Part shown: positions 7,959-30,260 of the stretch, piece after piece
Position numbering within the stretch: position 1 is the first letter of the stretch
Layout of the letters: every line of letters starts with the position of its first letter
From: Promethearchaeota archaeon
GTDB taxonomy: Archaea; Asgardarchaeota; Lokiarchaeia; Sigyniarchaeales; SOKP01
Assembly: GCA_048941185.1 (NCBI GenBank)
Contig: JBHLNW010000006.1
Coordinates: forward strand, 1,115 to 65,114
Reading direction: 5' to 3'
DNA length: 64,000 nt
Program-made: the position numbers and the translations under genes
Notes under the pieces: model-generated
The model's database searches: none
Told to the model about the DNA's origin: nothing
The model's input: the letters and a program-made list of their open reading frames with translations, nothing else

Positions 7959-7984
7959 CTTTTTCTTATTATTTGAATGATTTT

Positions 7985-8040: not shown

Positions 8041-8052
8041 TTTATTAGATAT

Positions 8053-8202: not shown

Positions 8203-8244
8203 TTTTTTTGTTCACTTTTCTCTTTAATTTTCAATATATTTTAA

Positions 8245-9549: not shown

Positions 9550-9553
9550 ATTA

Positions 9554-11294: not shown

Positions 11295-11858
11295 TCAAAA
11301 AGAGCCGCACCCATTGCATTTTCCATCAAGATATGCGGCACAATCATTACAAACATTTCCACAGTTCTCCTCTTGGCTTTTTTGGCTGAAGAGATTAAGT
11401 GGCAAAAATTTAGGTGTGATAAGTTCTGACACAAAAATGGTAGCAGCATGAAGAATCCCTTTTTTATTTGTAGGCCCACAGAAATTAATATATCTATGTA
11501 AAACATCAATACTTTGACCAATTATCCCTAAAATTAGATTATATTGACCGGTTACGTGTGCTAACAAAAAGACTCTGGGACAAGCTTCATATGCTTTAAT
11601 AATTTTTTGAACTTCGTCGTAATTACTCATTTCCATTAATATAATTGCAACTTTATACTTAAGGTTATTTATATTTGTATTAGCTTGAATTTTAAGAATC
11701 CCAGTATCTTCTAATTTAGAAATACGCTTTGCAATTCCAGTATGACTCATAGTCTCAGTACCGGATTTAAAAATTATTTTTTCCAAGTTTGTTAAACTTT
11801 CACGACCATTGTCAAACAACGCATTTAATATTTGTTTGTCTATTCCATCTAATTGCAT
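11295..11858 (-). CDS. Lrp/AsnC-family HTH protein with Cys-rich C-terminal tail
   Basis: IDKQILNALFDNGRESL..IAKRISKLEDTGILK HTH followed by an RAM-like domain. The tail is CGNVCNDCAAYLDGKCNGCGSF (C-x3-C-x2-C-x7-C-x2-C). Confidence 0.7.
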   Translation of the reverse strand: MQLDGIDKQILNALFDNGRESLTNLEKIIFKSGTETMSHTGIAKRISKLEDTGILKIQANTNINNLKYKVAIILMEMSNYDEVQKIIKAYEACPRVFLLAHVTGQYNLILGIIGQSIDVLHRYINFCGPTNKKGILHAATIFVSELITPKFLPLNLFSQKSQEENCGNVCNDCAAYLDGKCNGCGSF

Positions 11859-12244: not shown

Positions 12245-12832
12245 ATGAAAGTTTCTAGTAATATTATTATGCCATTAGATCAGATTGATAAACAGATTCT
12301 AAGTGCATTGTTTAATGATGGACGTGAGAGCTTAAGTTCCTTAAGTAAAAGTATTAAGAAATCTAATCATGATACTATGAGTCATGCAGGAATTGCAAAC
12401 CGTATTTCTAAATTAGAAGATTCAGGTACCCTTAAAATTCAAGGAAATATAAGTGTTAAGAACTTAAATTACTATGTAGCATTCATTTTGATGGAAATGA
12501 AAAATTATGAAGAGGTTCAGAAAGTTAGTGAAGCGTATGTGGAATGCCCAAGAGTTTTTTTATTAGCACATGTGACTGGTCAATATAATTTGATATTTGG
12601 AGTAATAGGGCAAGATATTGATGCTTTGCGCAGATATATTAACTTTTGTGGTCCTACAAATAAAAAAGGAGTATTACATTCTGCAATTATATTCACTGCT
12701 GATTTTATAGTACCTAAATTTCTCCCTCTTAACCTTTTTAGTGGCATAAGTAAAGAACATAAATGTGAGAATATATGTAAGAGGTGCGATGCCTTTATTG
12801 ATGGTAAATGCGGTGGGTGTGGTAATTTTTAA
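12245..12832 (+). CDS. Lrp/AsnC-family HTH protein with Cys-rich tail (paralog of 11295..11858)
   Basis: Collinear with the neighbour along its whole length. The tail is CENICKRCDAFIDGKCGGCGNF. The two genes are divergently oriented. Confidence 0.7.
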   Translation: MKVSSNIIMPLDQIDKQILSALFNDGRESLSSLSKSIKKSNHDTMSHAGIANRISKLEDSGTLKIQGNISVKNLNYYVAFILMEMKNYEEVQKVSEAYVECPRVFLLAHVTGQYNLIFGVIGQDIDALRRYINFCGPTNKKGVLHSAIIFTADFIVPKFLPLNLFSGISKEHKCENICKRCDAFIDGKCGGCGNF

Positions 12833-14638: not shown

Positions 14639-15370
14639 ATGAATTTCCCGAAATTATTTAAATCCAATTTCATATTAATCCTTTCTTTAATAATATTAAT
14701 AACTAATTTTCTTCTAATTGTAACATTGACTTCGTTAAACTTAATAATATGGGGAAGTCCGAATCGTATAGTATATATAATTTTTTTTTACCATGTTTCT
14801 GGCGCATGGCTAGCATATTTATCATTTGGTATAAGTTTATTATTTCACGTCCTTTATTTAAAGAAAAGACAAATAAATTGGAACCGTTTAGGTACAAATA
14901 GTATTATTGTTGGAGTATTCTTTACTACATTTACTTTGATTACTGGATCATTATGGTATAATGCCACTTCTGGAGATTATAATAACGTTTTTTGGCAGTG
15001 GAGTGATGGGAGACAAACTATGACCTTAGTATTACTTTTATGTTATCTAGCTTACCTAATATTTAGAAATTTGATTGAGGATAAAGAAAAAAGAGCAAAA
15101 TTATCTTCAGTCCTTGGTATCACATTATTTCCTACAATTCCCTTAAGTTACTTCTCAGCAATTATATTTACAAGTTTACATCCCTTAATTAATCCGACTC
15201 CAGGAGAACCAGGAAATATATATTGGGATCCAGTTAAATTATTTATGTTAATTTTTAACTTAATTGGAATAACCATTTTATTTTTATATGCTATTCAAAG
15301 ATTAGGAGAATTAGATAAAGCAAAAGAAAAGTTAGATATAATTATACAAAAAAGGTTAGTGGAGGAATAA
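14639..15370 (+). CDS. ccmC: heme exporter/handling protein CcmC
   Basis: Six TM segments. First heme-ligand motif YHVSGAW, a divergent WWD region FWQWSDGRQT, and second His motif TSLHP. Confidence 0.8.
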   Translation: MNFPKLFKSNFILILSLIILITNFLLIVTLTSLNLIIWGSPNRIVYIIFFYHVSGAWLAYLSFGISLLFHVLYLKKRQINWNRLGTNSIIVGVFFTTFTLITGSLWYNATSGDYNNVFWQWSDGRQTMTLVLLLCYLAYLIFRNLIEDKEKRAKLSSVLGITLFPTIPLSYFSAIIFTSLHPLINPTPGEPGNIYWDPVKLFMLIFNLIGITILFLYAIQRLGELDKAKEKLDIIIQKRLVEE

Positions 15371-15375: not shown

Positions 15376-15528
15376 ATGTTACTACAATATTTCTATCCCG
15401 ATTTAATAACAATAAGTGTTAGTTATATATTATTTTGGTTAGTTATTATATTTCTAATTTTATATCCTAAAATTCGATTAAAGAAGATATTGAAAAGAAT
15501 TGAAAAATTAGATAAAAACTTAAAATAA
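15376..15528 (+). CDS. ccmD: CcmD-like small single-TM protein (not in ORF track)
   Basis: My manual translation is MLLQYFYPDLITISVSYILFWLVIIFLILYPKIRLKKILKRIEKLDKNLK (50 aa). It sits in the canonical slot between ccmC and ccmE. The assignment rests on position and topology only. Confidence 0.4.
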   Translation: MLLQYFYPDLITISVSYILFWLVIIFLILYPKIRLKKILKRIEKLDKNLK

Positions 15529-15532: not shown

Positions 15533-15886
15533 ATGATAGTGATGAAGCTGAAAAAGACTAAAATTATAGCAATAGTTGGAATCGCTATATCTGTGATCAT
15601 TATAATCACATTGCTTACAACAAGTGCACGCCCTTACCTTAAGGTTTCTCAAGTCGCTTTAAATCCCTCAAAGTATGATAATAAACAAATTCAGATTATA
15701 GGGATCGTTGAGGGATTTGCTGGTAACGATTTTAATTTAACTGAAAGTGAATATAGCATTTATATTGATATAAACGGATTGCCTCCTCCAACTGATTTGA
15801 AAAATGGAATTGAAGTTGTTGTAACTGGTCTATTTAATTCCTCCTTGATTTTAGTTGCTACTCAGATTCTTACACAATGTAGTTAG
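15533..15886 (+). CDS. ccmE: heme chaperone CcmE, Cys-type, C-terminally truncated variant
   Basis: N-terminal TM anchor and an OB-fold-like body. The C-terminus ..VATQILTQCS aligns with E. coli ..ADEVLAKH(130)DENY, putting the Cys (15878-15880) at the heme-binding position. The protein stops one residue later. Confidence 0.7.
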   Translation: MIVMKLKKTKIIAIVGIAISVIIIITLLTTSARPYLKVSQVALNPSKYDNKQIQIIGIVEGFAGNDFNLTESEYSIYIDINGLPPPTDLKNGIEVVVTGLFNSSLILVATQILTQCS

Positions 15887-15893: not shown

Positions 15894-16619
15894 TTAATCA
15901 TATAAAAGATAATCTGAAGTTAAAGCCATAATTGAGCTCATTAGAATAATATGGGCACAAAAAAATATTATTTCATAGTATAAACTTGTTATTACTTCAC
16001 CTTCCAGGATTTTTATATTGATTGAAATAATGGGTGTAATAATGGGAAGAATCAAGGGAAAAAGCAAAATTGGTAAAATAAAAGATTTATTTTTAACATA
16101 CATAGAGAAAGCAGATACTAAACTTCCGCATATAGACAGATCTAATGTTGGTAATAACACTCCCAAAATAATATAAATTATTAATTGAGTTACATTAAAG
16201 TTGCTTATTGAAGGTGCGGATATAAAAGTACTAAACAGAAAAAGGATTATCTCTATAAAAGTTAATAATATTAGACAAAAGATGATTTTACTTGCAATTA
16301 TTAGGTTAGCAGATATAGGGGATGAAAGTATTCCTCCAATTGTTCCAGATTCTTTCTCTTTAACGAAAAGTCTAGACATAATATAAACAAGTGTAAAAAA
16401 AATGATGAGCCAATTTTCAATGACAAAAATCTCTAATGGCATATTTTGATATTGAGTACCGAAATTGTATACTGAAGAAAATATAAAGATTGATATTAAA
16501 TCAAAGAGAAAAATCGAAAATAAATCATTAATTTGTCTAAGTTCAGATCTTATGTCTTTAGTTAAAATTACTTTTAGCAATTTAATCTTTGATTTTAAGG
16601 TCAAGTTCGCATTTTTCAA
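15894..16619 (-). CDS. ccmB: heme exporter membrane subunit CcmB
   Basis: About 6-TM, 241-aa protein immediately downstream of the ABC ATPase within the ccm locus. Confidence 0.65.
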   Translation of the reverse strand: MKNANLTLKSKIKLLKVILTKDIRSELRQINDLFSIFLFDLISIFIFSSVYNFGTQYQNMPLEIFVIENWLIIFFTLVYIMSRLFVKEKESGTIGGILSSPISANLIIASKIIFCLILLTFIEIILFLFSTFISAPSISNFNVTQLIIYIILGVLLPTLDLSICGSLVSAFSMYVKNKSFILPILLFPLILPIITPIISINIKILEGEVITSLYYEIIFFCAHIILMSSIMALTSDYLLYD

Positions 16620-16631
16620 AATAAGATCCTC

Positions 16632-17345
16632 CTAAAAATAAGATTTAATTTCAGTTTCATTGAATTGCTCATTTAAAAAAGCTTTATTGATTTTTCCTTG
16701 TTTTAATATTATTAAATCATCGCAAATTTGTTGGAATACTTCAATTTTATGTGTTGCAAGTATTATCGATATTTTTTCATTATTTTTTAATTCTTTAAAG
16801 AAATTAATTAACATGGCAGTTGCATTATAATCTAATCCTGAAAATGGTTCGTCTAAAAATAATATTGAAGGGTTATGTATTAAAGCTCTAATTAATTCAA
16901 CTTTTTGCTTCATCCCATGGGATAGAACTCCTACAGGTTCATTTATCCAATCTTTTAAATGAAATTTTTCTACTAATTGTTCAATTTTTGACTTCAAAAT
17001 AGTTTTTTTAAAATTTAGATGTAAATTACCATAAAATGTTAAATTTTCAAAAATAGTTAGTTCTTCATAAAGAAAGGATTCATCAGTGGTAATTCCAATA
17101 TTTTGTTTTAAAATGTTTGAATGATCTTTATAGCTCATACCCTCAATTTCAATAGTCCCAAAAGTGGGTTTGAGCAATCCTGATAAAATTTTAATTAAAG
17201 TCGTTTTTCCGGCCCCATTCGCTCCTGCTATCCCAAATATAGTATTTTCTCTTATCATAAAAGATATTTTTTTAAGTGCAAGGAAATATCCAAATTGCTT
17301 TGATATTTTATTACATCTTATTATATTTTTATCGGATTTATCCAT
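16632..17345 (-). CDS. ccmA: heme exporter ABC ATPase CcmA
   Basis: Walker A GANGAGKTT, ABC signature LSHGMKQKV and Walker B ILFLDEP. Confidence 0.8.
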   Translation of the reverse strand: MDKSDKNIIRCNKISKQFGYFLALKKISFMIRENTIFGIAGANGAGKTTLIKILSGLLKPTFGTIEIEGMSYKDHSNILKQNIGITTDESFLYEELTIFENLTFYGNLHLNFKKTILKSKIEQLVEKFHLKDWINEPVGVLSHGMKQKVELIRALIHNPSILFLDEPFSGLDYNATAMLINFFKELKNNEKISIILATHKIEVFQQICDDLIILKQGKINKAFLNEQFNETEIKSYF

Positions 17346-17422
17346 AGGTTCAAATCAATCTTTTTACGACTATTTTAAAACTTAATAAAGAGAAGTAATT
17401 AAAATTAAAAAAAAAATATTTT

Positions 17423-20400
17423 TTATTTAATAAATCGTTTTGTTCTTGAAGTTTTTATTATAATTACTATTCCTGCGATAATTATACTAATTATGCTAAA
17501 ATATAATGAAAAGTCAATAATTTGTTCAATAGTTATTATGTTGTTGGATTTTGATTGTTCATTAACAATAATGTTGTCATATATCATATTCCAATTATTA
17601 TGAGTATCATTTGCGTAAATAATTACAGATATATCCCCTAGTGAATTTGGGATCCAATTATTAACTTCCCAGGTATTTCCAAAGATATTAATCATAGAAT
17701 GATTCGAACCTTCATATTCAATAATGACATCAGAGACATTAGAAAAATCTATAATCTCCACTTGGATCGAAATAGACTGTCCAATCGTTATAGTTTTATC
17801 ACTTATAACTAAATTAGAAAATATAGGACCTTTTGTATCAATGACAGTAATGTTATTCTTTAATGATATTTTGTTATTTTGAGAGTCAATAGCATGAAGT
17901 CTATAGAATTTCAAGCCTACATTACTTAGTGTCCAATTAAAATGCCAAGTTAATCCTCCGTAATTTGTCATAGAATAATTGTTTCCGTTATGCTCAAACA
18001 GAACAAGATTTATTGGAGAAAAATCAAAAATATCAACTTGAAACGATGCAGTGTTACCTAATTCTAATGGATCAGTATTTTCTATTAAATTTGATAAAGT
18101 TGGTGCATTAGTATCCAGTACAGTAATATTGCCTTCAATATAGTGCCAATTATTATTCGTATCTTCTCCAAATATTGTATATAATTTTAGACCTACAGAA
18201 TTCGGAATCCAATTATATTCCCATGTTGATCCTCCGATATTTATCATTGTGTAATTCACACTATCAGTTTCTATTAGCACTTGACTAATACCAGATAAAT
18301 CTGTCACATTAACTTGGATTGTTTCTGTTTGTCCTAACTCTAGAGGATCCACACTTTCTACAAGATTATTTAACGATGGTTGCACTGTGTCTTGAACGGT
18401 TATTGAATTGCTTAAAGAATTCCCATTTCCTTCGGTATCGATTGCATATATTTTATAAGATTTCACTCCAGTACTAATTGGATTCCAACCATTATATTCC
18501 CATATCGATCCACCAATATTTGCCATCGTATAATTCATGCCACTAATTTCTATTAAGACTTTGTTGATTGCTGATAAATCTGTAACATGGATTTGGATTG
18601 TTTCTGTTTGCCCCAATTCTAAAGGATCAGCACTTTCAAATAAATTAGATAAAGTTGGACCATTGGTATCTACTACATTGATATTGCTAGTTAAAGAGTT
18701 CCAATTTCCCTCATTGTCACTTGAGTATATTGTATATGATTCCAATCCAATATTAGCTGGAATCCAATTGTTATATTCCCATACTGAACCCCCAATATTT
18801 ATCATCGTATTATTCACACTATCAATTTCTATTAGCACTTGATTGATACCTGATAAGTCAGAAACGTTAATTTGAATTGTTTCTGTTTGTCCTAATTCTA
18901 AAGGATCAGCGCTCTCAATCAAATTAGATAATGTTGGACCGATAGTATCCACAATAGAAATATTAGCTATTAATGAGATTATATTATTACTTGTATCGTT
19001 AGCGTAAATAGTATAAAATTTTATTCCTGTGCTTGTAGGGTTCCAATTATTGTACTCCCATGTTATTGAATTTATTTTTGACATAGTATAATTAATACCT
19101 TCAATTTCAATATATACAGAACTTATTGGTGCCAAGTCAATAACATCAATTCGGATTATTTCTGTTTGTCCCAATTCTAAAGGATCAGTACTCTCATATA
19201 AGTTTGATAAAATAGGTGCAGTAGTATCAATTACTTCAATAGATCCATTTGTAAAATTCCAGTTATTTGATTTATCTTGAATGTAAATTGTATATAAATG
19301 TGTATTTACAGTACTAGGTACCCAGGTGTCATTTAACCATGTATTTCCTCCAATATACGACATTGAATGATTTGTTCCTTCAAATTCAATTTTAACTTGA
19401 TTAATCCCTGATAAATCTGTAGCATCAATTGAAATCAATACCGACTTTCCGAATTCAAGAGGATCATAACTTTCTGTTAAATTTCCAAAATTGGGAGGTG
19501 TTGTATCTATGACTAATATACTTTCACTAATTAGATTCCAATTATTAAAAGAATCATTAGCATAAATTTTAAATAATTTTGTTCCTACTGTATTTGGTTG
19601 CCATGTATATTCATATCTTTTTCCCCCTATATTTACCATTGTATAATTAGAGATTCCAAGTTCAATAAGTACTTTACTCACTCCATCGCTATCATTAACA
19701 TCAACTTGAATTGTCTCCGATTGCCCTAATTCCAACGGATCAGCACTTTTTGATAAGTTTTGAATTGATGGCCCTGATGAAATAAAAACTTCAATAGATC
19801 CAATTGTTGTATTTAAATTGTTACTGTTATCAATCATGTAAATAGTGTAATCAAAAATTCCTACAGAGATAGGTTTCCAATTAGACCACTCCCATTTATG
19901 TAATCCTTTGAAATTCATTGTGTGATTACTGTTATCATATTCAAGAAATACATCTTTCACTCCTGATCCTGGGGAGTCATAAACTTCAATTGAAATTGTC
20001 TCATTCTGTCCCAATGGGAGAGGATCAGCACTTTCTATTAAAAAATTATATGTTGGAGCTATTGTATCTTCCACATTAATACTATTAGTTATTGAATTCC
20101 AATTTCCTTCAGTATCACTAGCATAAACTGTATATAATTTTGTTCCGGTACTTGTTGGAGTCCAACTATTATATTCCCATATTGAACTACCGATATTTAT
20201 CATTGTATAATTTACACTATTAATTTCCAATAATACTTGATTAATGCCAGATAAATCTGTCACATTAACTTGGATTGTTTCTGTTTGTCCTAACTCTAAA
20301 GGATCGGCACTCTCTACCAAATTAGATAATACTGGAACTGTTGTATCAATTACATTGATATTTCCATTCATCGAATTCCAATTGTTAATCCCGTCTTTTG

Positions 20401-21916
20401 CATAAATATAATATGATTTTAATCCAGTAGTTAAAGGAATCCAATTGTTGTATTCCCAAGTTGAGCTACCAATTTTTGTCATAGTATAATTTACATTATT
20501 GATCTGTATAAGAACCTGTGTAATACCTGATAAATCTGTTACATTGATTTGAATTATTTCAGTTTGTCCCAATTCTAAAGGATCGGCATTTTCAATTAAA
20601 TTGAAAAGAAAAGGAGCTGTAGTATCTTGAACAGTTATTGAATTACTTAAAGAGTTCCAATTTCCTTCGGTGTCATTTACATAAATTGTATAACCTTTGA
20701 CTCCAACTGATAATGGAGTCCAGCTATTGTATTCATATCTAATTCCTCCTGTATTTATCATCGTATAATTTATCCCACCTAATTCTATAAAGACATTACT
20801 AATACCAGATAAATCTGTTACATTAATTTGAATCACTTCTGTTTGCCCTAACTCTAATGGATCCGCACTTTCTATCAGATTTGTTAATGATGGTTGTACT
20901 GTGTCTTGGACGGTTATTGAATTGCTTAAAGAGTTTCCATTTCCTTCAGCATCATTTACGTAAATCACGTAGGGTTTTATCCCTGTACTAATTGGTGTCC
21001 AATCATTATATTCCCATATAGAACCTCCGATGTTTGCCATCGTATAATTCATGCTACTAATTTCTATTAAGACACTATTGATTGCTGATAAATCAGTTAC
21101 ATTAATTTGTATTGTTTCTGTTTGTCCCAATTCTAAAGGATCAGCACTTTCAACTAAATTAGATAAATTCGGTGCTGTAGTATCAGTTACGAGAATATTT
21201 CCAGTTATTGAATTCCAACTTCCATCTGTATCACTAGCATAAATTATGTAGTTTTTAACACCAGTTGTACTCGGATTCCAATTATATTCAAAAGTGTTGC
21301 TTAAAATGTTTGTCATAGTGTAATTTTGTCCTGCTAATTCAATTAAAACTACGCTAACGCTTGTTTCTGAATCGGTTACATCTACCTGAAAGGTTTCTTG
21401 TTGCCCAAATTCTAAAGGATCACTGCTCTCAATAAGATTACTAAATTGAGGAGGAGTGTTTTCTACTTGGACAGTCAGTACTAAATCTCCATGTGCAAAA
21501 TAGGAAGCTGAACCTCCTGCTCTATATATAGCATCAGCATGGAGAGTATAAGTCTGTGCAATAGAGGGGGCAGTAACTTGAAAATTTATAACTGTTGAAT
21601 CTCCAGAACTACCTATTGAAACTGATTTTTGAGTTGTATCAAAAGTAAAATCTTTATTATCACCCAGACCTGGATTCCCACTTGGGAATCCAGCAACAAT
21701 ATTATTCCCTTGAGCTTCTGAGAAGCTTAACACTTGAATGCTAACTACAAAATTTTCATTTGGAGTAACAGATAATCCTGAACTTGATGACAATGTTACA
21801 TATCCTGTAGCACTCTGCGTGATATTTCCATGGCAACTAGCATGACCTTCTCCTGTAAAATCATTAAAATCTTGCGTTCTAGCTATAGCAAGACCTATAA
21901 TTGAAAAAACCAGCAT
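17423..21916 (-). CDS. giant surface protein: N-terminal single-Cys 'HxxCH' domain, 14 tandem Ig-like repeats and a C-terminal TM anchor
   Basis: 1497 aa with exactly one Cys (GHASCH, codon 21833-21835). The N-domain shares GDNKDF with the small paralogs. Many N-x-S/T sequons. C-terminal TM followed by a basic tail. The true start may lie upstream of the ATG (see findings). Confidence 0.8.
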   Translation of the reverse strand: MLVFSIIGLAIARTQDFNDFTGEGHASCHGNITQSATGYVTLSSSSGLSVTPNENFVVSIQVLSFSEAQGNNIVAGFPSGNPGLGDNKDFTFDTTQKSVSIGSSGDSTVINFQVTAPSIAQTYTLHADAIYRAGGSASYFAHGDLVLTVQVENTPPQFSNLIESSDPLEFGQQETFQVDVTDSETSVSVVLIELAGQNYTMTNILSNTFEYNWNPSTTGVKNYIIYASDTDGSWNSITGNILVTDTTAPNLSNLVESADPLELGQTETIQINVTDLSAINSVLIEISSMNYTMANIGGSIWEYNDWTPISTGIKPYVIYVNDAEGNGNSLSNSITVQDTVQPSLTNLIESADPLELGQTEVIQINVTDLSGISNVFIELGGINYTMINTGGIRYEYNSWTPLSVGVKGYTIYVNDTEGNWNSLSNSITVQDTTAPFLFNLIENADPLELGQTEIIQINVTDLSGITQVLIQINNVNYTMTKIGSSTWEYNNWIPLTTGLKSYYIYAKDGINNWNSMNGNINVIDTTVPVLSNLVESADPLELGQTETIQVNVTDLSGINQVLLEINSVNYTMINIGSSIWEYNSWTPTSTGTKLYTVYASDTEGNWNSITNSINVEDTIAPTYNFLIESADPLPLGQNETISIEVYDSPGSGVKDVFLEYDNSNHTMNFKGLHKWEWSNWKPISVGIFDYTIYMIDNSNNLNTTIGSIEVFISSGPSIQNLSKSADPLELGQSETIQVDVNDSDGVSKVLIELGISNYTMVNIGGKRYEYTWQPNTVGTKLFKIYANDSFNNWNLISESILVIDTTPPNFGNLTESYDPLEFGKSVLISIDATDLSGINQVKIEFEGTNHSMSYIGGNTWLNDTWVPSTVNTHLYTIYIQDKSNNWNFTNGSIEVIDTTAPILSNLYESTDPLELGQTEIIRIDVIDLAPISSVYIEIEGINYTMSKINSITWEYNNWNPTSTGIKFYTIYANDTSNNIISLIANISIVDTIGPTLSNLIESADPLELGQTETIQINVSDLSGINQVLIEIDSVNNTMINIGGSVWEYNNWIPANIGLESYTIYSSDNEGNWNSLTSNINVVDTNGPTLSNLFESADPLELGQTETIQIHVTDLSAINKVLIEISGMNYTMANIGGSIWEYNGWNPISTGVKSYKIYAIDTEGNGNSLSNSITVQDTVQPSLNNLVESVDPLELGQTETIQVNVTDLSGISQVLIETDSVNYTMINIGGSTWEYNWIPNSVGLKLYTIFGEDTNNNWHYIEGNITVLDTNAPTLSNLIENTDPLELGNTASFQVDIFDFSPINLVLFEHNGNNYSMTNYGGLTWHFNWTLSNVGLKFYRLHAIDSQNNKISLKNNITVIDTKGPIFSNLVISDKTITIGQSISIQVEIIDFSNVSDVIIEYEGSNHSMINIFGNTWEVNNWIPNSLGDISVIIYANDTHNNWNMIYDNIIVNEQSKSNNIITIEQIIDFSLYFSIISIIIAGIVIIIKTSRTKRFIK
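17555..21454 (-). repeat. 14 in-frame tandem coding repeats of about 279 bp (about 93 aa)
   Basis: The consensus unit is xPxLSNLxESADPLELGQTETIQINVTDLSGIxxVLIEIxxxNYTMxNIGGSxWEYNxWxPxSxGxKxYTIYAxDxEGNWNSxxxxIxVxDT, recurring 14 times. Units 2 and 11 are nearly identical. Confidence 0.9.
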
Positions 21917-22253
21917 AATTGTGATTAAAAACGAATAAGTTTTTCTTTTAATTCTCGTTTATATCCCCGTTTTTAATATTTAAATAAAAATATATATATT
22001 TAATATAGAGAAATCTAAGAAATATTAAAAGATTTGTCAAAACTGGTTATTTTTAACAATTGAATAAGTGTTAGTTTCAATTTAAGATAAAAATCATTAT
22101 GATAGTTTAAATTTGAACCATTCAGAAATAGTTTAATTTGCCTAGATCTAAAGAATTCAATAAGTTAAATATTAAACGTATTTCTAAGATATTAATATTT
22201 TTCTTAGCCGTTTATCCCAAGAATTAAGTCTATAATGAAACTTATATACTGAA

Positions 22254-23972
22254 TTAGTCGTTCTGTTTGAATTGCCTCTTTGTTGGAAAAAAGCTAATAA
22301 GAATTGAAGGAACTATCCCTATCATTAGTAATATGAATCCTGGAATGAAAAAGATATCTTGAAAATTAGCTGACATTAAAAATCCAGCAAGAATTAAGGA
22401 GATTCCAGCATGAATTATTGTTTTTGAATTTAACCTAAAAAAATATTTAATCCCCCTTTTTAAATTTAAATTCTTCGCTAATTTGAAGATAGAAGAAAAA
22501 AATGACATCATGTAAATCCATAGCACTGGATTTATCCAGATATTAGATACAAATAACAAGATAAATGACAATATAATTTGAATTAATAATCCTATAACTA
22601 TAACTGATACTATCCCTTTAATGCTAAAACTTTCCCATAAAGAACAAAAAATCAATGATAAAGCTAAACCTGTTGCTAAAATTAAAGAAGTTATAATAAA
22701 ATATTCGGGACCGATGCTAACAATATTTATTGGAACTAAATTTGAAAGAAGATAGGTGAATGGAGGGATAAACAGCCCAAAGATACAGACAAAAGCTAAA
22801 CCAAATAAAAAAATATAACTTAAATAATCAAAAAATAGTTTTTTATTCCGATATTCCTCCATTAAATAATCTAATACTATATAAATTACATAAAGGGGAA
22901 GCAAGATTAGTACTAGGCCTAAAAGTACTACCCAAATAACTAGTTCTGCCCCTTCAGTAAACGTATGAAGCGAATTTAACCCTCCTCCACGTGTAATTAA
23001 TGTCGAAAATACAATTGAAGAAAAAATTAAAGCTACATTTATCTTTATTAATATGGGTTTTTTTTTCTTAAAAATCACGGTATGAAAGAAAGCTGTTATA
23101 AAAAACCATGGAATGAGGGAAACTGTTTCGACGGGATCCCAACCCCAATACCTCCCCCAAGTTAAAGCAATTTTAGCCCAATACGCACCTAATCCTATGC
23201 TTAGGGACATAACTAACCACCCAAATTTTAAGGCGAAATTATAGAATTTATCCTGATATAATTCTATAAGTTTTGATTTAGGAGTTATGACTTCAGCGAT
23301 TATTATTGTAAATGGCACTAAAAAAACAGCATAAGCGATAAATGTAAAAAAAGGATGCCAAATCATAAATGGAGATATTAAAAGTGGATTTAAACCTAAC
23401 CCATCAGAAGGAGAAGATGATTGAAGTTCAAAAGGATTTAAGTAGAATAATATTATTAAGAAAATTGATGAAATTATTGATGACAAAATAACTGAGCGTA
23501 TAAAAACTAAATCTTCGTTATTATGATTCCCAATCCTATAGAAATTAATTATTATTGAATTAAATAACATCCAAGTCATAATTGATCCTTCTTCACCAGC
23601 CCAAATTGCTACAATTTTATAAATTAGAGGAAGGGAATTATTGCTATAATACATTACATATACAATTTTATAAGAGTTATTTACAAAACTGTAAACCATA
23701 ATTAAAAACAAAAACAATGATAAGTTCATGGCTAACATAGTTAAAAAATAGACGTTCTGTTTTTTAGTAATTAGAAAAATGAGATCCAAGACCATTATGA
23801 TAATTAGAAAAATGATTGAGAGACTACCCATTAGTGATATAAAAATAATTCTAAAATTTACTTCTATTGTATTTAATAACAATGGAATTACAATTATAAT
23901 GATGAGAATTAAAATCAAATTAAGAAAAACAGTCTTTTTCACAGACCAATTACTACGCATTAAACAAATCAC
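22254..23972 (-). CDS. ccmF: cytochrome c heme lyase/handling protein CcmF
   Basis: Polytopic membrane protein with the WWD motif WGRYWGWDPVE and His motifs (WHPFFTF, NSLHTF). Confidence 0.85.
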   Translation of the reverse strand: MICLMRSNWSVKKTVFLNLILILIIIIVIPLLLNTIEVNFRIIFISLMGSLSIIFLIIIMVLDLIFLITKKQNVYFLTMLAMNLSLFLFLIMVYSFVNNSYKIVYVMYYSNNSLPLIYKIVAIWAGEEGSIMTWMLFNSIIINFYRIGNHNNEDLVFIRSVILSSIISSIFLIILFYLNPFELQSSSPSDGLGLNPLLISPFMIWHPFFTFIAYAVFLVPFTIIIAEVITPKSKLIELYQDKFYNFALKFGWLVMSLSIGLGAYWAKIALTWGRYWGWDPVETVSLIPWFFITAFFHTVIFKKKKPILIKINVALIFSSIVFSTLITRGGGLNSLHTFTEGAELVIWVVLLGLVLILLPLYVIYIVLDYLMEEYRNKKLFFDYLSYIFLFGLAFVCIFGLFIPPFTYLLSNLVPINIVSIGPEYFIITSLILATGLALSLIFCSLWESFSIKGIVSVIVIGLLIQIILSFILLFVSNIWINPVLWIYMMSFFSSIFKLAKNLNLKRGIKYFFRLNSKTIIHAGISLILAGFLMSANFQDIFFIPGFILLMIGIVPSILISFFPTKRQFKQND

Positions 23973-24152: not shown

Positions 24153-25025
24153 ATGAAAAAGAAAATTCTAATTTTTATAATTTGCATTATCGGGTTGATG
24201 AGCGTTTCGCTTTTTGTCTTTGGAACCGCAAGACCCCCGTTTGGTGATACTCATTCTTCTAGTGGATGTCATGATTCCCCTGGGTCGTATACAATTTCAT
24301 ATACCAGTCCCGTAAGAACTGAAATTAATAATACTGCTTATTATATTTTTAACGTTTCAGCAACTGGATCTGATTTGTTTTTACAAGCATACCCTGGTGC
24401 TAAAGATAATGATAACTTTAACATATTACCATCAAATAATAAAATAGTTGATGCATCAATAGATGATCTTGATCCAAATCCAAATGCAATGACTATTGCG
24501 TTTAATGTGACACCAACTGTAGAGAAGGTTTCCTATATTCTTTTTATAATTGCAGGAAATAATTTAACTGGAGGTCAAGTATTTGCTTATGCTGAGATTA
24601 CAATTGGAGCTCCTGTAGGATTTGATCTATTTTCTGCAATATTTAATCATTTAGGTTTATATCTAGGACTACCAGCATTGTTATTAGTTTCACTCGCAAC
24701 GGTCCTAGTTTTAGTGAATGAAAATAAGTTTGTTAAAACTCATGGGATCCTCGCAGGGGGTTCATGGATTTTGACAGTGATCAATGTAATTGTCGCTTTT
24801 ATAAGAATACCTGCTGGTGCTTGGCTTGGAGGCTACGAATTGATCTATCACCTACCACATATAATTCTCGGGTCATTAGGATTAGTAACTGGGTTTTTAA
24901 GTATGTTATTTGGGATTGCTGCGGAAAGAAAACCAGCAAAAATTACAGGTTATTTAACCTTATTAAGTTGGTGGGGTGCATTTCTTTTAGGTTATTTTCT
25001 AAACTCCAATTTACTTTTAATTTGA
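24153..25025 (+). CDS. single-Cys 'CH' domain fused to a C-terminal 4-TM His-containing membrane domain
   Basis: Signal peptide, then THSSSGCH (Cys codon 24267-24269). Paralogous beta-rich domain with KDNDNF. Four TM helices follow, carrying His residues (NHLGLY, KTHGIL, IYHLPHII). Confidence 0.65.
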   Translation: MKKKILIFIICIIGLMSVSLFVFGTARPPFGDTHSSSGCHDSPGSYTISYTSPVRTEINNTAYYIFNVSATGSDLFLQAYPGAKDNDNFNILPSNNKIVDASIDDLDPNPNAMTIAFNVTPTVEKVSYILFIIAGNNLTGGQVFAYAEITIGAPVGFDLFSAIFNHLGLYLGLPALLLVSLATVLVLVNENKFVKTHGILAGGSWILTVINVIVAFIRIPAGAWLGGYELIYHLPHIILGSLGLVTGFLSMLFGIAAERKPAKITGYLTLLSWWGAFLLGYFLNSNLLLI

Positions 25026-25047: not shown

Positions 25048-26544
25048 ATGGTTCAGTCTAACAATAATAATATGAAAAGTAAAAAAAGGACAAAAAGAAG
25101 CAAAGATCTTGAAGCTCAATTTTTGGAATTTATATCTCCGTATCATGTAAGTACGAATCCTTTTGAACTTGAATCTGCTTCAGCAGATCTCACCTCATTA
25201 CCTGCATATCATTATAAATTTAAAAAAGAATATTTAGCTAGTTATGTTATACGGCCAGCTAACGTTAATGAATTATCATTAGCAATACAAAAATGCAGAA
25301 AACTCAATATCCCAGTAACAATTAGGGCTGCTGGAACTTCATGTTTCTCTTCAGCGACACCCTCTAAGGGAGGAGTGATTATAGATATACGTAGATTAAA
25401 TAAGGTTCAAGAAATAAATCAAGAGGAAATGACAGTAACAGTAGGCAGTGGAATATCTTGGTTAAATTTAATAGAAGCATTATCTGATTATGGTCTTGAA
25501 CCAAAGACATTTCCAACAAGTTTTAAAACTTCCTGTGTAGGCGGATTTATTGCAACCCCAGGAAAAGCAGGCATAGGTGTCGTTAAATATGGAACAATGG
25601 AGTCTACGATCATTTCATTAGATTTAGTTAAACCAGATGGTTCACTAATACGAATATCGAGAAACTCTTCGGATGAAATAAGCCTTAATGATATTATAGG
25701 AACATATGGTATATTTGGGGCAATAGCAAATGTTAAATTATCTATAACTACACTGAAAAATTCATTAGAAATAATAGGGTATGGTTTTAATTCAATTGAA
25801 CAAGCAATTAATTTTTATTTGACGATAAAGGAGGATCTACCTAATAAACCATTATTTCTCTCAATTTCAGAAAGGAAATTTGAAAAATATTCGCATGTAA
25901 CTTTCCCAAAGCAAGAATGGATTGTTTGGGCCGTATTTTATGACGATCCTGAACAAACCTCAAAAAGTATATCAGATGTTAAATCTTATGCATCAAAGAT
26001 AAACTGTGCTGAGATAGAAAGTTCCTATTTGAAAGAAAAGTGGCGCGATATTAGTGATGCTGAGGTATCAATAGGATTATCAACAAGAAATTTAATATTC
26101 CAGGAATATTGGATCTCTGACAAGAGATTAAAAAACTTCATGGAATTGTATATAAAACAAAATAAAAAATATAAATTTCCTACAGCTTCATATGCAATTT
26201 CAGGAGAAAAAGGATGGACAAGAGTAAAGATTTTTGGTCTAACTGATATAGAAAGAACTCTTGAATTTTTTGCGGTTAAGGCTTTCTTACATGATTTAAC
26301 TGTTCAGGCATTCAATCAAGGAGATAGATTATACACAATCGGGATTGTCAATACATTTTACTTACTAAAATATAAGCCAGAAGAAGTAAAGAAATGGAAA
26401 ATGTTAAAAGATAAATTAGATCCAAAACATTTATTCAATTCATATAGATTAACTAAAGCCAAAATGAAATTCTGGAGAGTATCATTACTTTTCACAACAG
26501 CAAAACTATTATACAAGTTATTTAAAATAAAGAAGTCTAATTGA
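25048..26544 (+). CDS. FAD-binding PCMH-type oxidoreductase (GlcD / D-lactate dehydrogenase-like)
   Basis: FAD-binding domain pattern (VIRPANVNEL.., VTIRAAGTS.., GGVIIDIRRLN, VTVGSGISW). Starts 23 nt after the preceding gene. Confidence 0.7.
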   Translation: MVQSNNNNMKSKKRTKRSKDLEAQFLEFISPYHVSTNPFELESASADLTSLPAYHYKFKKEYLASYVIRPANVNELSLAIQKCRKLNIPVTIRAAGTSCFSSATPSKGGVIIDIRRLNKVQEINQEEMTVTVGSGISWLNLIEALSDYGLEPKTFPTSFKTSCVGGFIATPGKAGIGVVKYGTMESTIISLDLVKPDGSLIRISRNSSDEISLNDIIGTYGIFGAIANVKLSITTLKNSLEIIGYGFNSIEQAINFYLTIKEDLPNKPLFLSISERKFEKYSHVTFPKQEWIVWAVFYDDPEQTSKSISDVKSYASKINCAEIESSYLKEKWRDISDAEVSIGLSTRNLIFQEYWISDKRLKNFMELYIKQNKKYKFPTASYAISGEKGWTRVKIFGLTDIERTLEFFAVKAFLHDLTVQAFNQGDRLYTIGIVNTFYLLKYKPEEVKKWKMLKDKLDPKHLFNSYRLTKAKMKFWRVSLLFTTAKLLYKLFKIKKSN

Positions 26545-26647: not shown

Positions 26648-27991
26648 ATGAGTGAAGGAAAAGAAAAAAAAGATTTAAAAAGTGTGATAACTTCTGGTCC
26701 ACCCGTAGCAGGTTTAGTTTCTCCTTCAAGAGATAATTTAGTCGAGCCTTCTAAGAAATTTAGTGAAAGATATTCCTATGAAAGATGTACTCATTGTGGA
26801 TATTGTCGCCATGTTTGTAAGGTTTATAACACTTCTTGGTGTGAAACTGATTATGCTGGGGGGCGAAATAGAATTATTAAAGCGCTGGATAGAAAAGATA
26901 TAAAATTCGATAAAGAGGAAATAATTCCTTCGGTTTTTCGATGTATGTTGTGTGGTAATTGTAAAGTTGTATGCCCTGTCCAAGTTGATACATTGAGTGT
27001 ATTCCAACATTTCAGAAAACAGGTAGTAAAAAAGGGTGCTATACCTGAAAAATTGAAGATCCTTAAAAGTTCAATATTAGAAAACAATAATCCGTTTCTA
27101 GAAAAACATGGCGATAGATTTAATTGGGTTAATTCTTGTGAAGAAGGGGCTGAAGCTTATGAACGTAGCATACAAAAACCTGAGATCCAAGTTGCAAAGA
27201 AAAAGGATTTTTCTGTTGGCTATTTTGTAGGATGTACATCTTCATATAGAAATAAAGAGCTCGTTTCATCAACTAGTCGAGTCTTAAAGAAATTAGGAGT
27301 TGAATTCACACTTTTTCCAGAAGAAAGATGTTGTGGTTCTGTTTTATTTCGGACAGGATTAGAAGATGAAGCCATTAACCTTGTAAGACATAATTACGAA
27401 ATGATCCGTAAAAGCGGGGTAAAAGAAGTTGTTTTCTCTTGTTCTGGATGTTTTTCGACATTTTCCCTTGAATATTCTAAATTTGCGAACTATCAACTTG
27501 GATTTGATTTATATCATATTACTCAATACGCTTTAAAAGTTGTAAAAGAAAAAAATCTTAAAATCCGATACACGAAGCGTTCAAAGGAGGATCCTTTACT
27601 TATAACATATCATGATCCTTGTCATTTAGGACGATATTGTGATGTTTTTGAAGAACCTAGAGAACTCATTCGAAGAATTGAGGGTGTAAAGTTATTTGAG
27701 ATGAAACATAATAGAGAAATGTCTTGGTGTTGCGGTGCAGGTGGAGGTGTGAAAGCACTTTATGGAGATGTAGCACTTGAAGTAGGAAGAGATAGATTAA
27801 CAGAAACAAGGGCTTGTATGGCAAGAATGCGTGAAGATCGTTTGAAAGAAGCAATTGAAACATCTGCAGAAGTTCTAGTAAGTTCCTGCGTCTTTTGTAA
27901 GAATAATTTGTATCAAGTAGCATCTGAGGATAATTCTCCTATTAAAGTTATGGATATTTCACAACTTTTAGCTGATTGTGAGTTTTATTAG
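26648..27991 (+). CDS. Fe-S / CCG-domain oxidoreductase (GlcF / HdrD-like)
   Basis: CTHCGYCRHVC and CMLCGNCKVVCP cluster motifs, plus two CCG-type domains (ERCCGS.., WCCGAGGG.., CVFCK). Confidence 0.75.
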   Translation: MSEGKEKKDLKSVITSGPPVAGLVSPSRDNLVEPSKKFSERYSYERCTHCGYCRHVCKVYNTSWCETDYAGGRNRIIKALDRKDIKFDKEEIIPSVFRCMLCGNCKVVCPVQVDTLSVFQHFRKQVVKKGAIPEKLKILKSSILENNNPFLEKHGDRFNWVNSCEEGAEAYERSIQKPEIQVAKKKDFSVGYFVGCTSSYRNKELVSSTSRVLKKLGVEFTLFPEERCCGSVLFRTGLEDEAINLVRHNYEMIRKSGVKEVVFSCSGCFSTFSLEYSKFANYQLGFDLYHITQYALKVVKEKNLKIRYTKRSKEDPLLITYHDPCHLGRYCDVFEEPRELIRRIEGVKLFEMKHNREMSWCCGAGGGVKALYGDVALEVGRDRLTETRACMARMREDRLKEAIETSAEVLVSSCVFCKNNLYQVASEDNSPIKVMDISQLLADCEFY

Positions 27992-28121: not shown

Positions 28122-30260
28122 TTATAACCTCACACAACTCGAAGAATCAGATATATTATTCAATTTCTCCAGATTTACTGAAATTTCTTCTTTGGATTTT
28201 ATAGTTTGATGAATTTCTGGAACTTTCATTATCGGATTACCATTTAACATTATCTTTTTAATAGATTTTAATTTTATTATAGAATCAGGTAAAGTTTTTA
28301 ATTTATTTCCATTTAGCCAAATTTCTTTGAGAGATTGTAATAAAACTACCGATTTTGGTAAAGATTCAAGGCTATTTCCACTAAAATCCAATTTTTCAAG
28401 TGAATAAAGAGAACCAATTGAGTCAGGAAGATTTTTAAATTGATTATCACTTAATTTGAGAACCTTCAGTGACCTAAGCTTATTTAAATCATCTGGTAGT
28501 GCATAAATTTTATTGAAAGAAGCATCCAAATATTCTAAAGATGTTATCATGCAAATTGAGCTAGACAATTTTAATAAATTATTATTATTTAAATGTAAAG
28601 ATTTAAGCGATTTAAGAGCCGCAAAAGAATTTGGTAGTCTTTTTAATCTATTCCAACCTAATTTTAAAACTTCAAGAAACTCAAGCAGTCCCATAGATCT
28701 AGGAAGGCTTTTAAGATTATTATCCTCAAGATTAAGCTTATTAAGTGAGGAAATTGAATTCAATGAATTTGGTAACCTTTCTAAACTATTATTACTTAAA
28801 TTGAGTAGCTTAAGTGAATAAAGCAAACCAATAGATTCTGGTAAAGATCTGATTTTATTTTTACTTAAATCTAAAGTTTTAAGTGATTTAAGTTCTCCTA
28901 TAGAAGATGGTATTTCTGTCAATTTATTTTCCCTTAAGTTTAAAAATTTTAACAATGAAAGATTACCAATTGATTTTGGTAGCCTAACTAAATTATTTAT
29001 TTCTAAACTTAAATATTGAAGAGAAGAAAGTTTACTGATTGAATCAGGGATTTTTTCTAATTTATTATTGCTCAACTTTAATACTTTTAAAGATCTAAGA
29101 GAGAAAATTGACTTTAAAACACACTTTAAATTATTTCCTCCTAAATCTAAGACTTTCAAATCCTTTAAAAGACCAATTGATTTACTAAGATTATGTAAAT
29201 TACAATCTTTTAATGTAAGTGATTGAAGTGAACGAAAATATTTTATATAGAACGGTACTTTAATTAAAGGTACTTTTTCGATATGAATTGAGACAACTTC
29301 TCCTTCTAATACCTTATAGTTTAAAATCGGATACTTTTTTTTCATGAATGTAAAAGTTAAATAATTTCTAAAAATATCTGATAATTTAGATATAGACAAC
29401 TCTTCAAATTGTTTAAAATAATGCTTAATCGAAGAATTGAATTCATTATCCTCAATTAATTTTATCTGAGATATTAATGCATCTTTAGCTGCTTTATTAT
29501 TTAATCTCTCTAATGCTTTTATTAATGCAATAGAATTTTTGTAATTATATTCATTGCCAATAGCCCATTTTATAGGGAAGAATTTAATTTTCTTTAGTTT
29601 TTTTAAATTTTCTATACCAATTATCTCAGAAGTATCTTGAGAAGCATTTCTATCACGCCAATTTATTACATGGTTATCCACTTTTGAGAAATCTACTTCA
29701 ATTATAAAACCGTTATCAATAATGAAATCGAATTCATGGAATTTTTTTTTTAAATAATTGAGGGTAACTAAGTTTATGAGTATATCAACTATATTCTCGA
29801 AAGAGGTTTGTTTAAATAAATTCTGATTAATTAAAGGATTAATACCATCCCATATCTCGTTATTTGAAGTTTTTCTTAATTCATCCATCAATAATGAGAC
29901 AATTCTATTATCGTCTGTATTTTTCAAAGATTTAATTACTGTAATCAGAACGTCATAAGAAGTCTCATGCTGAAGAGTCCAAATAAAAGGATTTAAACAT
30001 TTTTTAATGAACTTGTCCCGTATGACCTGAACTGCAGAATAACGTAGATTTTGATTTTGTTCAGAGATTAATATATCTTCTAGAACTCTGAAAACTTTTA
30101 AATGGATAAAATCGAATTTATTTAAAATATCGATACAATCATTCCTAATTACATCGTTATCGATATTTTCAATTAAATTAATTAACAAATTTATAGTTTC
30201 ATTTTTACTTTTTTTTTCACTAATGAAATCTTCATAAATTTTTCGTGGAATTAAGTCCAT
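28122..30260 (-). CDS. leucine-rich-repeat protein with N-terminal HEAT/ARM-like region
   Basis: About 15 consecutive 23-aa LRRs (LxxLxLxxNxLxxLPxSIGxLxx) in the C-terminal half. Helical repeats in the N-terminal half. Confidence 0.8.
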   Translation of the reverse strand: MDLIPRKIYEDFISEKKSKNETINLLINLIENIDNDVIRNDCIDILNKFDFIHLKVFRVLEDILISEQNQNLRYSAVQVIRDKFIKKCLNPFIWTLQHETSYDVLITVIKSLKNTDDNRIVSLLMDELRKTSNNEIWDGINPLINQNLFKQTSFENIVDILINLVTLNYLKKKFHEFDFIIDNGFIIEVDFSKVDNHVINWRDRNASQDTSEIIGIENLKKLKKIKFFPIKWAIGNEYNYKNSIALIKALERLNNKAAKDALISQIKLIEDNEFNSSIKHYFKQFEELSISKLSDIFRNYLTFTFMKKKYPILNYKVLEGEVVSIHIEKVPLIKVPFYIKYFRSLQSLTLKDCNLHNLSKSIGLLKDLKVLDLGGNNLKCVLKSIFSLRSLKVLKLSNNKLEKIPDSISKLSSLQYLSLEINNLVRLPKSIGNLSLLKFLNLRENKLTEIPSSIGELKSLKTLDLSKNKIRSLPESIGLLYSLKLLNLSNNSLERLPNSLNSISSLNKLNLEDNNLKSLPRSMGLLEFLEVLKLGWNRLKRLPNSFAALKSLKSLHLNNNNLLKLSSSICMITSLEYLDASFNKIYALPDDLNKLRSLKVLKLSDNQFKNLPDSIGSLYSLEKLDFSGNSLESLPKSVVLLQSLKEIWLNGNKLKTLPDSIIKLKSIKKIMLNGNPIMKVPEIHQTIKSKEEISVNLEKLNNISDSSSCVRL

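Follow-up and report, generated by a model that had tools for sequence, protein, structure and literature searches.

The locus described here raises the question of what a surface protein of 1497 residues with a single cysteine does between ccmF and ccmA, two genes of the System I machinery for heme attachment. The gene lies in a stretch of 64,000 nucleotides, called the window below, from a Promethearchaeota archaeon (positions 1,115 to 65,114 of contig JBHLNW010000006.1, assembly GCA_048941185.1). Our analysis suggests that its product is a monoheme c-type cytochrome, whose heme would be held by one thioether bond and carried on a cofactor-free stalk of roughly 50 nm, and we hold this reading to be probable with moderate assurance. 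What leads us to it is that a Cys-His (CH) pair is the only invariant motif of the head domain, that orthologous modules have canonical CXXCH at this very site, that the surrounding ccm cluster looks functional, that no other substrate is found nearby and that members of the family are fused to redox proteins.

The gene is a single open reading frame (ORF) that encodes, in this order, a signal peptide, the CH head, 14 immunoglobulin (Ig)-like repeats, a transmembrane anchor and a basic tail (Table 1). The initial annotation had described 1497 residues, one cysteine, a transmembrane helix and a basic tail, and all of these are present in the translated ORF. It had also placed the gene between ccmF and ccmA on their strand, which holds, ccmF lying upstream and ccmA downstream; the strand itself has to be corrected to minus, and the plus-strand reading of the interval is full of stops. 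The window has a guanine-plus-cytosine content of about 30%, and an ORF of 4.5 kb in such DNA is far longer than expected by chance. The protein is strongly acidic, with 164 Asp plus Glu residues against 44 Lys plus Arg. Its sole cysteine is C28, followed by H29 within the motif G-H-A-S-C-H-G. A lipoprotein reading of C28 was rejected, as the residue lies 16 positions downstream of the cleavage site and its surroundings are not those of a lipobox. The K-x-K-R-F-[FI] pattern of the tail is seen again in orthologues, and no profile match to the sorting signals Loki-CTERM, Heimdall-CTERM or PGF-CTERM was found in the tail of this protein. With the anchor at the C-terminus, the head is predicted to be membrane-distal, as originally proposed.

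The head combines an N-terminal motif segment of about 20 residues with a beta-sandwich of 7-8 strands. Structure prediction, one of the checks that the initial annotation had suggested for head and repeats, gave a head model with a predicted local distance difference test score (pLDDT) of 86.4 and a predicted TM-score of 0.81. The confidence of the motif segment is about 60, as expected since the cofactor is missing from the model. The Foldseek matches of the head are generic folds only, namely complement MG domains, CARDB and Ig V domains, with TM-scores of 0.5-0.6. A Pfam scan of this head and of its three paralogues in the window gave no match, and a sequence-profile search of the PDB with the head gave nothing meaningful.

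The head belongs to a family whose named members all come from Asgard MAGs (metagenome-assembled genomes). A word-indexed search with the four heads of the window returned 62 proteins, and every match with a named source comes from an Asgard MAG (Promethearchaeota, Thor-, Hermod-, Odin- and Lokiarchaeia). All names among the 62 proteins are 'hypothetical' except for one Joint Genome Institute (JGI) label, 'putative ATP-grasp target RiPP'. Close homologues of the head carry the label Thorarchaeota. An exhaustive search with a hidden Markov model gave 93 cluster representatives at E < 1e-3, some of them from Hodarchaeales. The NCBIfam family NF041895 ('choice-of-anchor V') is weakly but consistently similar to the heads along about 110-125 residues, among them the region of the motif, and all scores stay below its cut-off of 42 bits: 19.3 bits for the full protein, 23.7 for the mature head and 39.6 for the CNNCH member P0098. 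Several different C-terminal anchors are found behind the Asgard heads too, as the name of that family implies. A protein search with P0098 for named choice-of-anchor V proteins returned only P0098 and P0073. In the limited set of literature searched, we found no description of the head family, of an HXXCH site or of Asgard Ccm substrates.

The Cys-His pair is nearly invariant in this family. All of the 146 heads aligned from the 93 cluster representatives have the Cys, and 99% have a His directly after it. The third position before the Cys is His in 90 of the 146 (HxxCH), and in 18 the His lies one residue further upstream. Canonical CXXCH occupies the aligned site in at least 8 divergent members and CxCH in 3-4, and about 25 members have neither His nor Cys upstream of CH. 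The pair is thus the only constant, as expected of a minimal heme c site. The window protein, reading H-A-S-C-H, does not carry the two-Cys CXXCH form; what it has is the minimal pair C28-H29 in an exported domain, behind a shortened signal peptide. Other conserved positions of the head are a Gly about 9 residues further on, F-T-E-A, D-N-x-x-F and A-P-x-x-x-G-x-Y-x-L. The upstream His could form a second, His-vinyl linkage to heme, a type of bond known in holo-CcmE and in cyanobacterial GlbN, or could be part of a metal site.

The latter thought leads to a rival explanation, in which H25, C28 and H29 bind a non-heme metal (Cu, Zn, Fe or Ni), the nearness of the ccm genes is an accident of how operons are organised and the protein is a metal-binding surface or adhesion protein. 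Of the heads, 84% keep a His at -3 or -4, and its replacement by Cys in some members is a classic ligand swap. The sandwich is of a generic Ig/CARDB-like type, and one of its Foldseek matches, the CARDB domain 3idu, binds metal ions. Against this explanation stand the roughly 25 members that keep CH with no upstream His or Cys, and the adjacency of Cys and His itself, which is the signature of heme c and awkward as a ligand pair for one metal ion. Moreover, the heads are embedded in ccm clusters at no fewer than nine loci, and nothing else nearby suggests itself as an exported substrate with CXXCH. We would therefore give the metal site only a small chance. The initial proposal of a putative heme-binding CH head gains good comparative support from the near-invariant pair, from CXXCH at the same site and from these ccm loci.

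The heme-attachment genes around the stalked gene appear to form a working, streamlined System I. The genes ccmA, ccmB, ccmC, ccmE and ccmF all flank it. CcmF is encoded by a single gene of about 570 codons, is 26% identical to Escherichia coli CcmF (E = 5e-35) and retains the WWD domain and the equivalents of E. coli H173, H261, H303 and H491. CcmE matches its Pfam family with 30.6 bits against a cut-off of 24.6. PDB searches with CcmE, by single sequence and by profile, gave no CcmE match, the protein being too divergent, and its identity thus rests on Pfam, NCBIfam and synteny. No ccmH, ccmG or ccmI was seen in the cluster; the lack of ccmH and ccmG there would fit substrates that have no disulfide to reduce.

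The cluster is similar to the CcmABCEF system of Methanosarcina (PMC9084895) in having ccmA, B, C, E and F, in having no ccmH or ccmI in the cluster and in a CcmE whose Cys replaces the His, and it differs from that system in four respects. First, the CXXXY motif of CcmE was reported to be universal in archaea (PMC9084895), whereas CcmE of the Asgard loci ends two residues early, in an invariant Q-C-S-stop at 8 of 8 loci. The presumed heme-binding Cys is thus the second-last residue, and the Tyr four residues further on is absent. A weak hhalign match aligns this residue, C116 in the window, with E. coli H130, though only when the match is extended without gaps. Second, CcmD was reported to be absent in archaea (PMC9084895), yet a CcmD-like ORF of 48-59 codons is conserved between ccmC and ccmE in every related locus, with sub-threshold matches to PF04995 (E = 2.5e-4) and TIGR03141 (E = 8e-3). 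Third, CcmF is encoded by one gene. Fourth, the presumed substrates of the Asgard system have a single Cys.

One shared cluster contains all these genes, in the window and in at least 8 other loci from Promethearchaeota and Hermodarchaeota MAGs and metagenome contigs. It begins with two Lrp/AsnC-like genes, followed by two short heads, ccmC, the CcmD-like ORF and ccmE on one strand; ccmB, ccmA, a slot and ccmF follow on the opposite strand, and then the gene of a head fused to four transmembrane helices (head-4TM), a FAD_binding_4 oxidase and a Fer4/CCG protein. Four head paralogues are interleaved with ccmABC(D)EF in the window. Of the members with canonical CXXCH, two could be placed in a locus, and both belong to this module, beside ccmF. 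Single-Cys and two-Cys heads occur in the same setting: one locus (L005) has P0143 (CSTCH) in the order CCG, FAD_binding_4, head-4TM, ccmF, and in another (L007) a head-4TM protein with CGECH lies next to single-Cys heads in one cluster. A scan of 211 kb from these loci for ORFs that combine CXXCH with an N-terminus like that of a signal peptide gave three. Two of them are family members, and in the third (L005 2450-3097) the motif comes at residue 180. The CXXCH motifs elsewhere in the window belong to cytoplasmic Fe-S proteins. There is thus no other predicted CXXCH substrate in a plausible heme-site context within these 211 kb.

The stalk consists of 14 repeats of 92-95 residues, in agreement with the 14 repeats of about 93 residues first counted. 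The motif DPL[EP]LG is found in 13 of the 14, and the 14th repeat is degenerate. The repeats contain no Cys and no conserved His, in line with the initial remark that they have no Cys or His-rich motifs. Both the profile cut-off and the predicted fold place them among Big_7/Ig-like domains: the Pfam Big_7 match is 68.9 bits against a cut-off of 24.1, summed over weak repeats, and an AlphaFold model of two repeats is all-beta with a pLDDT of 96.7. The best PDB neighbours of this model in Foldseek are the BIg domains of SiiE (E = 2e-9), followed by SraP and the ice-binding adhesin. The beta-sandwich stalk of the initial annotation is thus well supported by prediction. The statement that the repeats are rich in N-x-S/T sequons did not hold, since the 39 sequons compare with 33 +/- 4.9 in shuffled sequences (P = 0.13) and reflect composition; a sequon does occur at repeat position 44 in 14 of 14 repeats.

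In repeat adhesins each Ig domain spans 3.3-4 nm, and from this typical size the rod is probably about 45-55 nm long. The protein is similar to the giant Ig-repeat adhesins (SiiE, SraP, MpIBP) in its tandem Ig-like domains of about 90 residues and its acidic rod, and conserved acidic residues at the domain borders are suggestive of stiffening by Ca2+. It differs from them in being archaeal, in its C-terminal transmembrane anchor and in its tip, which is a putative cytochrome rather than a lectin or ice-binding module.

Is the 14-repeat array real? The initial annotation had raised the worry that short-read assembly may collapse or expand it. We took read support from Logan contigs of four sediment metagenomes (X1-X4) of one study, and these tile positions 16500-23000 without a gap. 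The word depth in the array equals that of the flanks, at about 16-24 in X1, 32-45 in X2 and 24-34 in X3, and this evenness is an argument that the array is neither collapsed nor expanded. A contig assembled independently by JGI (L001) encodes an orthologue of 1511 residues with 14 repeats in the same ccmF-ccmA slot, and the 14 units of this protein (P0063) are colinear with those of the window and orthologous repeat by repeat. A cluster member of 1513 residues (P0152) lies on two further contigs and is of nearly the same length. Between the window protein and its L001 orthologue, identity is 69% and synonymous divergence (dS) about 1.2, and the ratio of nonsynonymous to synonymous rates (dN/dS) is 0.16-0.17 in head and stalk alike. 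The array has therefore long been kept under purifying selection.

Some observations could still be taken to favour an assembly artefact. The close homologues in NCBI MAGs are all partial, the Logan contigs break within the array, and contigs in X2-X4 contain an odd joint from 20874 to 19494 with 17 nt added, which is in frame and puts repeat 3 after repeat 7. The depth of repeats 3-7 is not doubled, and the joint is thus probably the arrangement of another co-occurring strain. The repeats are 32-84% identical in protein and only 50-84% in DNA, and the longest exact DNA word common to two of them is 52 nt. Unique contigs cover the whole array at flank depth in four runs, and independent assemblies yield the products of 1511 and 1513 residues. 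We find an artefact hardly credible.

The number of repeats varies among relatives, a comparison that had been called for at the outset. A stalked or stalkless orthologue sits precisely between ccmF and ccmA. This slot holds the 14-repeat form in the window and in L001, an 8-repeat form in L009 (Promethearchaeota) and L010 (Hermodarchaeota), and a form with 0 repeats in L002, L003 and L004, where a 215-residue head is followed by a poly-Asp linker and a transmembrane helix; L011 and L012 have no gene in the slot. A 16-repeat form adjoins the cluster in L007. The 8-repeat proteins retain the distinctive units 1, 6, 7, 8, 13 and 14, and the 14-repeat form has two expanded blocks of like units, 2-5 and 9-12. 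A genome-locus search with the whole 1497-residue protein returned no locus.

Whether the protein is exported in the window genome depends on where translation starts. The ORF extends upstream in frame by 14 codons to a stop codon, and this extension matches the basic n-region found in the signal peptides of the orthologues. Its first codon is ACG, at the point where the orthologue in L010 has an ATG start, and no read variants of this codon exist across the four metagenome runs, all of which agree. Translation may start at this ACG or at an ATT, or at M1 with the short signal peptide MLVFSIIGLAIA. The initial annotation assumed export, which is less certain here, as the ancestral start is now ACG and the signal peptide is shortened. 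We consider export plausible. Nanopore runs and RNA runs holding the region were looked for, and none were found.

The same facts allow a second rival explanation, that the gene is decaying or silent in the window genome, the ancestral ATG having been lost and the product being unexported or unmade. The ACG, the 12-residue signal peptide with no basic n-region, a slot that is dispensable in relatives and the fruitless search for transcript data are what one would expect from it. It agrees poorly with a 4.5 kb ORF that has stayed intact in AT-rich DNA, with a dN/dS of 0.17 in head and stalk against the L001 orthologue and with the identical sequence in all four metagenomes. In addition, the h-region LVFSIIGLAIA and the AxA site may still work, and initiation at ACG or ATT is also possible. 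Decay is, in our judgement, very unlikely.

The family is tied to a redox module in the membrane. In the fourth paralogue of the window the head is fused to a four-transmembrane-helix (4-TM) domain. Three His of this domain, located where TM1, TM2 and TM3 end, are invariant and may form a site for b-type heme; a PDB profile search with the domain found no known relative. The head-4TM gene always adjoins genes for the FAD_binding_4 oxidase and for the HdrD/GlcF-like protein with Fer4 plus two CCG domains. One Promethearchaeota protein, P0072 (MHA1522204.1 of NCBI), unites a signal peptide, a head, 2 Ig repeats, a transmembrane helix and a cytoplasmic Fer4/CCG protein in a single chain. Three other members (P0113, P0132 and P0142) have an extra domain between head and transmembrane helix, which is EB_dh/DOMON-like by eye only. 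In L001 a 381-residue protein of the Pfam family EB_dh (DOMON-like, heme b-type) with a PGF/Loki-CTERM-like tail adjoins the ccm cluster.

These observations suggest the following mechanism for a monoheme cytochrome. The 1497-residue protein would be exported across the membrane, and the streamlined System I, consisting of CcmABC, the CcmD-like peptide, the CcmE that ends in Cys-Ser and CcmF, would attach one heme to the N-terminal segment of its head. We infer that the attachment is covalent, through one thioether bond to C28, and that H29 is the proximal ligand of the iron. The head would then be located at the N-terminal, membrane-distal tip of a very acidic rod of 14 Ig domains, anchored by the single C-terminal transmembrane helix. 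In the set of four paralogues, the stalked protein would be the long-reach member, and the two short heads would stay at the membrane surface. The head-4TM protein and the cytoplasmic FAD/Fe-S (HdrD/GlcF-like) oxidoreductase could provide a plausible electron route across the membrane to the extracellular hemes, the route as well as its direction being our reconstruction. As the cofactor-free stalk cannot conduct electrons, the tip would need to move or dock in order to reach the short heads or partner cytochromes.

Several observations weigh against a monoheme cytochrome. A single distal heme at the end of a cofactor-free protein of about 50 nm has no obvious electron supply. Neither a cytochrome fold nor a NEAT domain is among the best 50 Foldseek PDB matches of the head. 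No conserved Met or second His that could serve as the sixth ligand is found in the aligned heads, and the His at -3 or -4 is unneeded by a simple single-thioether model and fits a metal-ligand set equally well. A study of E. coli (PMC3268396, citing Allen 2002 and Goddard 2010) reports that System I matures single-Cys sites very poorly there, and hence a changed specificity has to be assumed for the Asgard Ccm proteins. The first ATG of the ORF leaves only MLVFSIIGLAIA with no basic n-region, and no RNA or proteome evidence for the protein was found. Finally, the empty slot in L011 and L012 and the stalkless form in L003 imply that the stalked form is not essential.

Another explanation keeps the heme and drops the electron conduit. 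The protein could be a heme-tipped adhesin, a sensor or a catalytic surface protein, such as a peroxidase or a sulfide- or NO-binding protein, with the Ig stalk projecting the head through the surface layer as in the giant bacterial adhesins. The cofactor-free stalk does resemble those of SiiE, SraP and the ice-binding adhesins; repeat numbers of 0, 8, 14 and 16, or the absence of the gene, are typical of adhesin-like accessory proteins; and a head with no conserved sixth ligand fits a five-coordinate heme that binds ligands or is catalytic. The family is nonetheless linked, and even fused, to the redox module of head-4TM protein, FAD oxidase and CCG protein, a linkage that suggests electron transfer as the business of the family in general. 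We consider this explanation unlikely, without dismissing it. In the monoheme reading, which we prefer, contact of the tip with a mineral or a syntrophic partner, as proposed in the initial annotation, is weakened, since the stalk of about 50 nm gives no path for electrons to the membrane. A multiheme wire, as in the conduits of anaerobic methanotrophic archaea (ANME) or Geobacter, was rejected, as the protein has one CH site only and the stalk of 1300 residues has no Cys.

Table 1. Coordinates of the features discussed in the text (positions of the window unless a locus is named).
Feature	Position	Strand	Remarks
Mvh/Hdr-like gene sets	6545-10864; 31045-38217		HdrB-/HdrC-like proteins, [NiFe] hydrogenase large and small subunits, MvhD, HdrA
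Lrp/AsnC-like protein, first	11295-11858	minus	Cys-rich tail
Lrp/AsnC-like protein, second	12245-12832	plus	Cys-rich tail
Short paralogue, 215 aa	13194-13841	plus	DHGTCHAG; head and Loki-CTERM-like C-terminal anchor
Short paralogue, 221 aa	13848-14513	plus	SHTGCHG; head and Loki-CTERM-like C-terminal anchor
ccmC	14639-15370	plus	
CcmD-like ORF	15376-15528	plus	50 aa, single transmembrane helix; between ccmC and ccmE
ccmE	15533-15886	plus	ends ...TQCS-stop
ccmE with QCS-stop, other loci	L001 10121-10459; L003 7182-7520; L007 5869-6216; L009-L012		
ccmB	15894-16619	minus	downstream of stalked gene
ccmA	16632-17345	minus	downstream of stalked gene
Stalked gene, 1497 aa	17423..21916	minus	stop codon 17423-17425
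Basic cytoplasmic tail	17426..17455	minus	KTSRTKRFIK
C-terminal transmembrane helix	17456..17521	minus	about aa 1466-1487; hydropathy maximum
14 tandem Ig-like (BIg/Big_7) repeats	17555..21457	minus	aa 154-1454
Head domain	21458..21880	minus	aa 13-153
H25-A-S-C28-H29	21830..21844	minus	proposed heme c site (single thioether C28, axial ligand H29)
Residual signal peptide MLVFSIIGLAIA	21881..21916	minus	aa 1-12; AxA-type cleavage site before R13, suggested by alignment with paralogues and orthologues
In-frame upstream extension	21917..21958	minus	T-R-I-K-R-K-T-Y-S-F-L-I-T-I, putative lost n-region of the signal peptide
ACG codon	21956-21958	minus	ATG start in orthologue L010
Stop codon bounding the extension	21959-21961	minus	
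ccmF, heme lyase	22254..23972	minus	upstream of stalked gene
Fourth paralogue, head-4TM	24153..25025	plus	HSSSGCHD
FAD_binding_4 oxidase	25048-26544	plus	
Fer4 plus 2xCCG protein	26648-27991	plus	HdrD/GlcF-like
HEAT/leucine-rich repeat protein	28122-30260	minus	712 aa
hypE-like, hypD, hypF	40147-45735		hydrogenase maturation
tRNA	56524-56615	minus	92 nt; Rfam 54.3 bits
EB_dh protein in L001	L001 12701-13846		381 aa

The remaining content of the window (Table 1) is that of an energy-metabolism region of an anaerobe, with two Mvh/Hdr-like sets and hydrogenase maturation genes. The two Lrp/AsnC-like proteins are paralogous and share the Cys-rich tail C-x2-C-x5-6-G-x-C-x-G-C-G-x-F. Both are kept beside the ccm/head cluster in L003 and in L009-L012, and in L001 an incomplete copy lies at the contig end; they may regulate the cluster or sense a cofactor for it. 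In the short paralogues, the tails (GGIPGFEL...KKKARR and IPFNSV...RRKRK) come close to, but stay under, the NCBIfam cut-offs for Loki-CTERM and Heimdall-CTERM (16.1-18.9 against 19.9 and 17.4 against 24), and the second tail type has P-[FL]-N-[ST] conserved ahead of the transmembrane helix. Directly downstream of the redox module lies a gene for a protein with HEAT repeats and many leucine-rich repeats. The tRNA found by Rfam is probably an intron-containing archaeal tRNA; ARAGORN found none in the window.

We compared the protein with other unusual cytochromes. Cytochrome f has a signal peptide, a body that is mainly a beta-sandwich and one C-terminal transmembrane anchor, and its heme c motif lies in the first 20 or so residues of the mature chain. 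The paralogues of 215-221 residues share this gross layout of signal peptide, early motif, beta-sandwich and C-terminal transmembrane helix. Homology is not detectable, cytochrome f being absent from the best 50 Foldseek matches and from the PDB sequence matches of the head, and cytochrome f has two Cys, no Ig stalk and maturation by System II, whereas the Asgard head has one Cys and an archaeal System I. The mitochondrial cytochromes c and c1 of Euglenozoa carry [AF]XXCH, with a single Cys, one thioether bond and a His ligand (PMC8262978). A heme c site reduced to XXXCH is thus common to them and the Asgard head. They differ in the first motif position, which is Ala or Phe in Euglenozoa and preferably His in the Asgard heads, and in their all-alpha class I fold and non-Ccm maturation; the Asgard head is a predicted beta-sandwich, extracellular and linked to Ccm. 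For ANME and Methanoperedens, S-layer-fused or large extracellular multiheme cytochromes have been proposed to transfer electrons between species or to minerals (PMC9012536). The Asgard protein resembles these in having an archaeal c-type module outside the cell, a large non-heme scaffold and a C-terminal anchor, but they have many CXXCH hemes and a conductive path while it has one single-Cys site and a heme-free stalk. A c-type cytochrome, System I and an Ig-repeat surface protein are each of a known kind, and their combination is new. The apparent novelties are a predicted fold unlike those of solved cytochromes, a putative natural single-Cys site tied to a variant Ccm system and a stalk of variable length.

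A much wider reading can be built on these data. We speculate that an extracellular redox system specific to Asgard archaea may exist in Loki-, Thor-, Hermod-, Odin- and Hodarchaeales, in which beta-sandwich monoheme cytochromes would be matured by a remodelled Ccm system whose CcmE ends in Cys-Ser and which has a CcmD-like subunit, the heme would be bound by one thioether, the upstream His might add a second, His-vinyl link to the heme, and electron-carrying tethers of about 50 nm would shuttle single electrons between the head-4TM/HdrD-like module and syntrophic partners or minerals. We regard this as doubtful. If true, it would provide a route of direct interspecies electron transfer for fermenters supposed to be free of cytochromes.

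The more modest reading, a monoheme cytochrome on a stalk, would have consequences of its own. If true, it would provide a natural System I that matures single-Cys sites with a CcmE that has no Tyr ligand, and this would be informative on the mechanism of heme attachment. The series of stalks with 0, 8, 14 and 16 repeats would represent a natural experiment on the distance of the heme from the membrane. Surveys of cytochromes in such MAGs count CXXCH motifs (PMC9723726), and hence a family with CH only stays unseen. If the heads bind heme, current reconstructions would be missing the surface cytochromes, and a redox module spanning the membrane, of many Asgard genomes. Eukaryotes have no closer known relatives than the Asgard archaea, and models of eukaryogenesis turn on the energy metabolism and syntrophy of these archaea.

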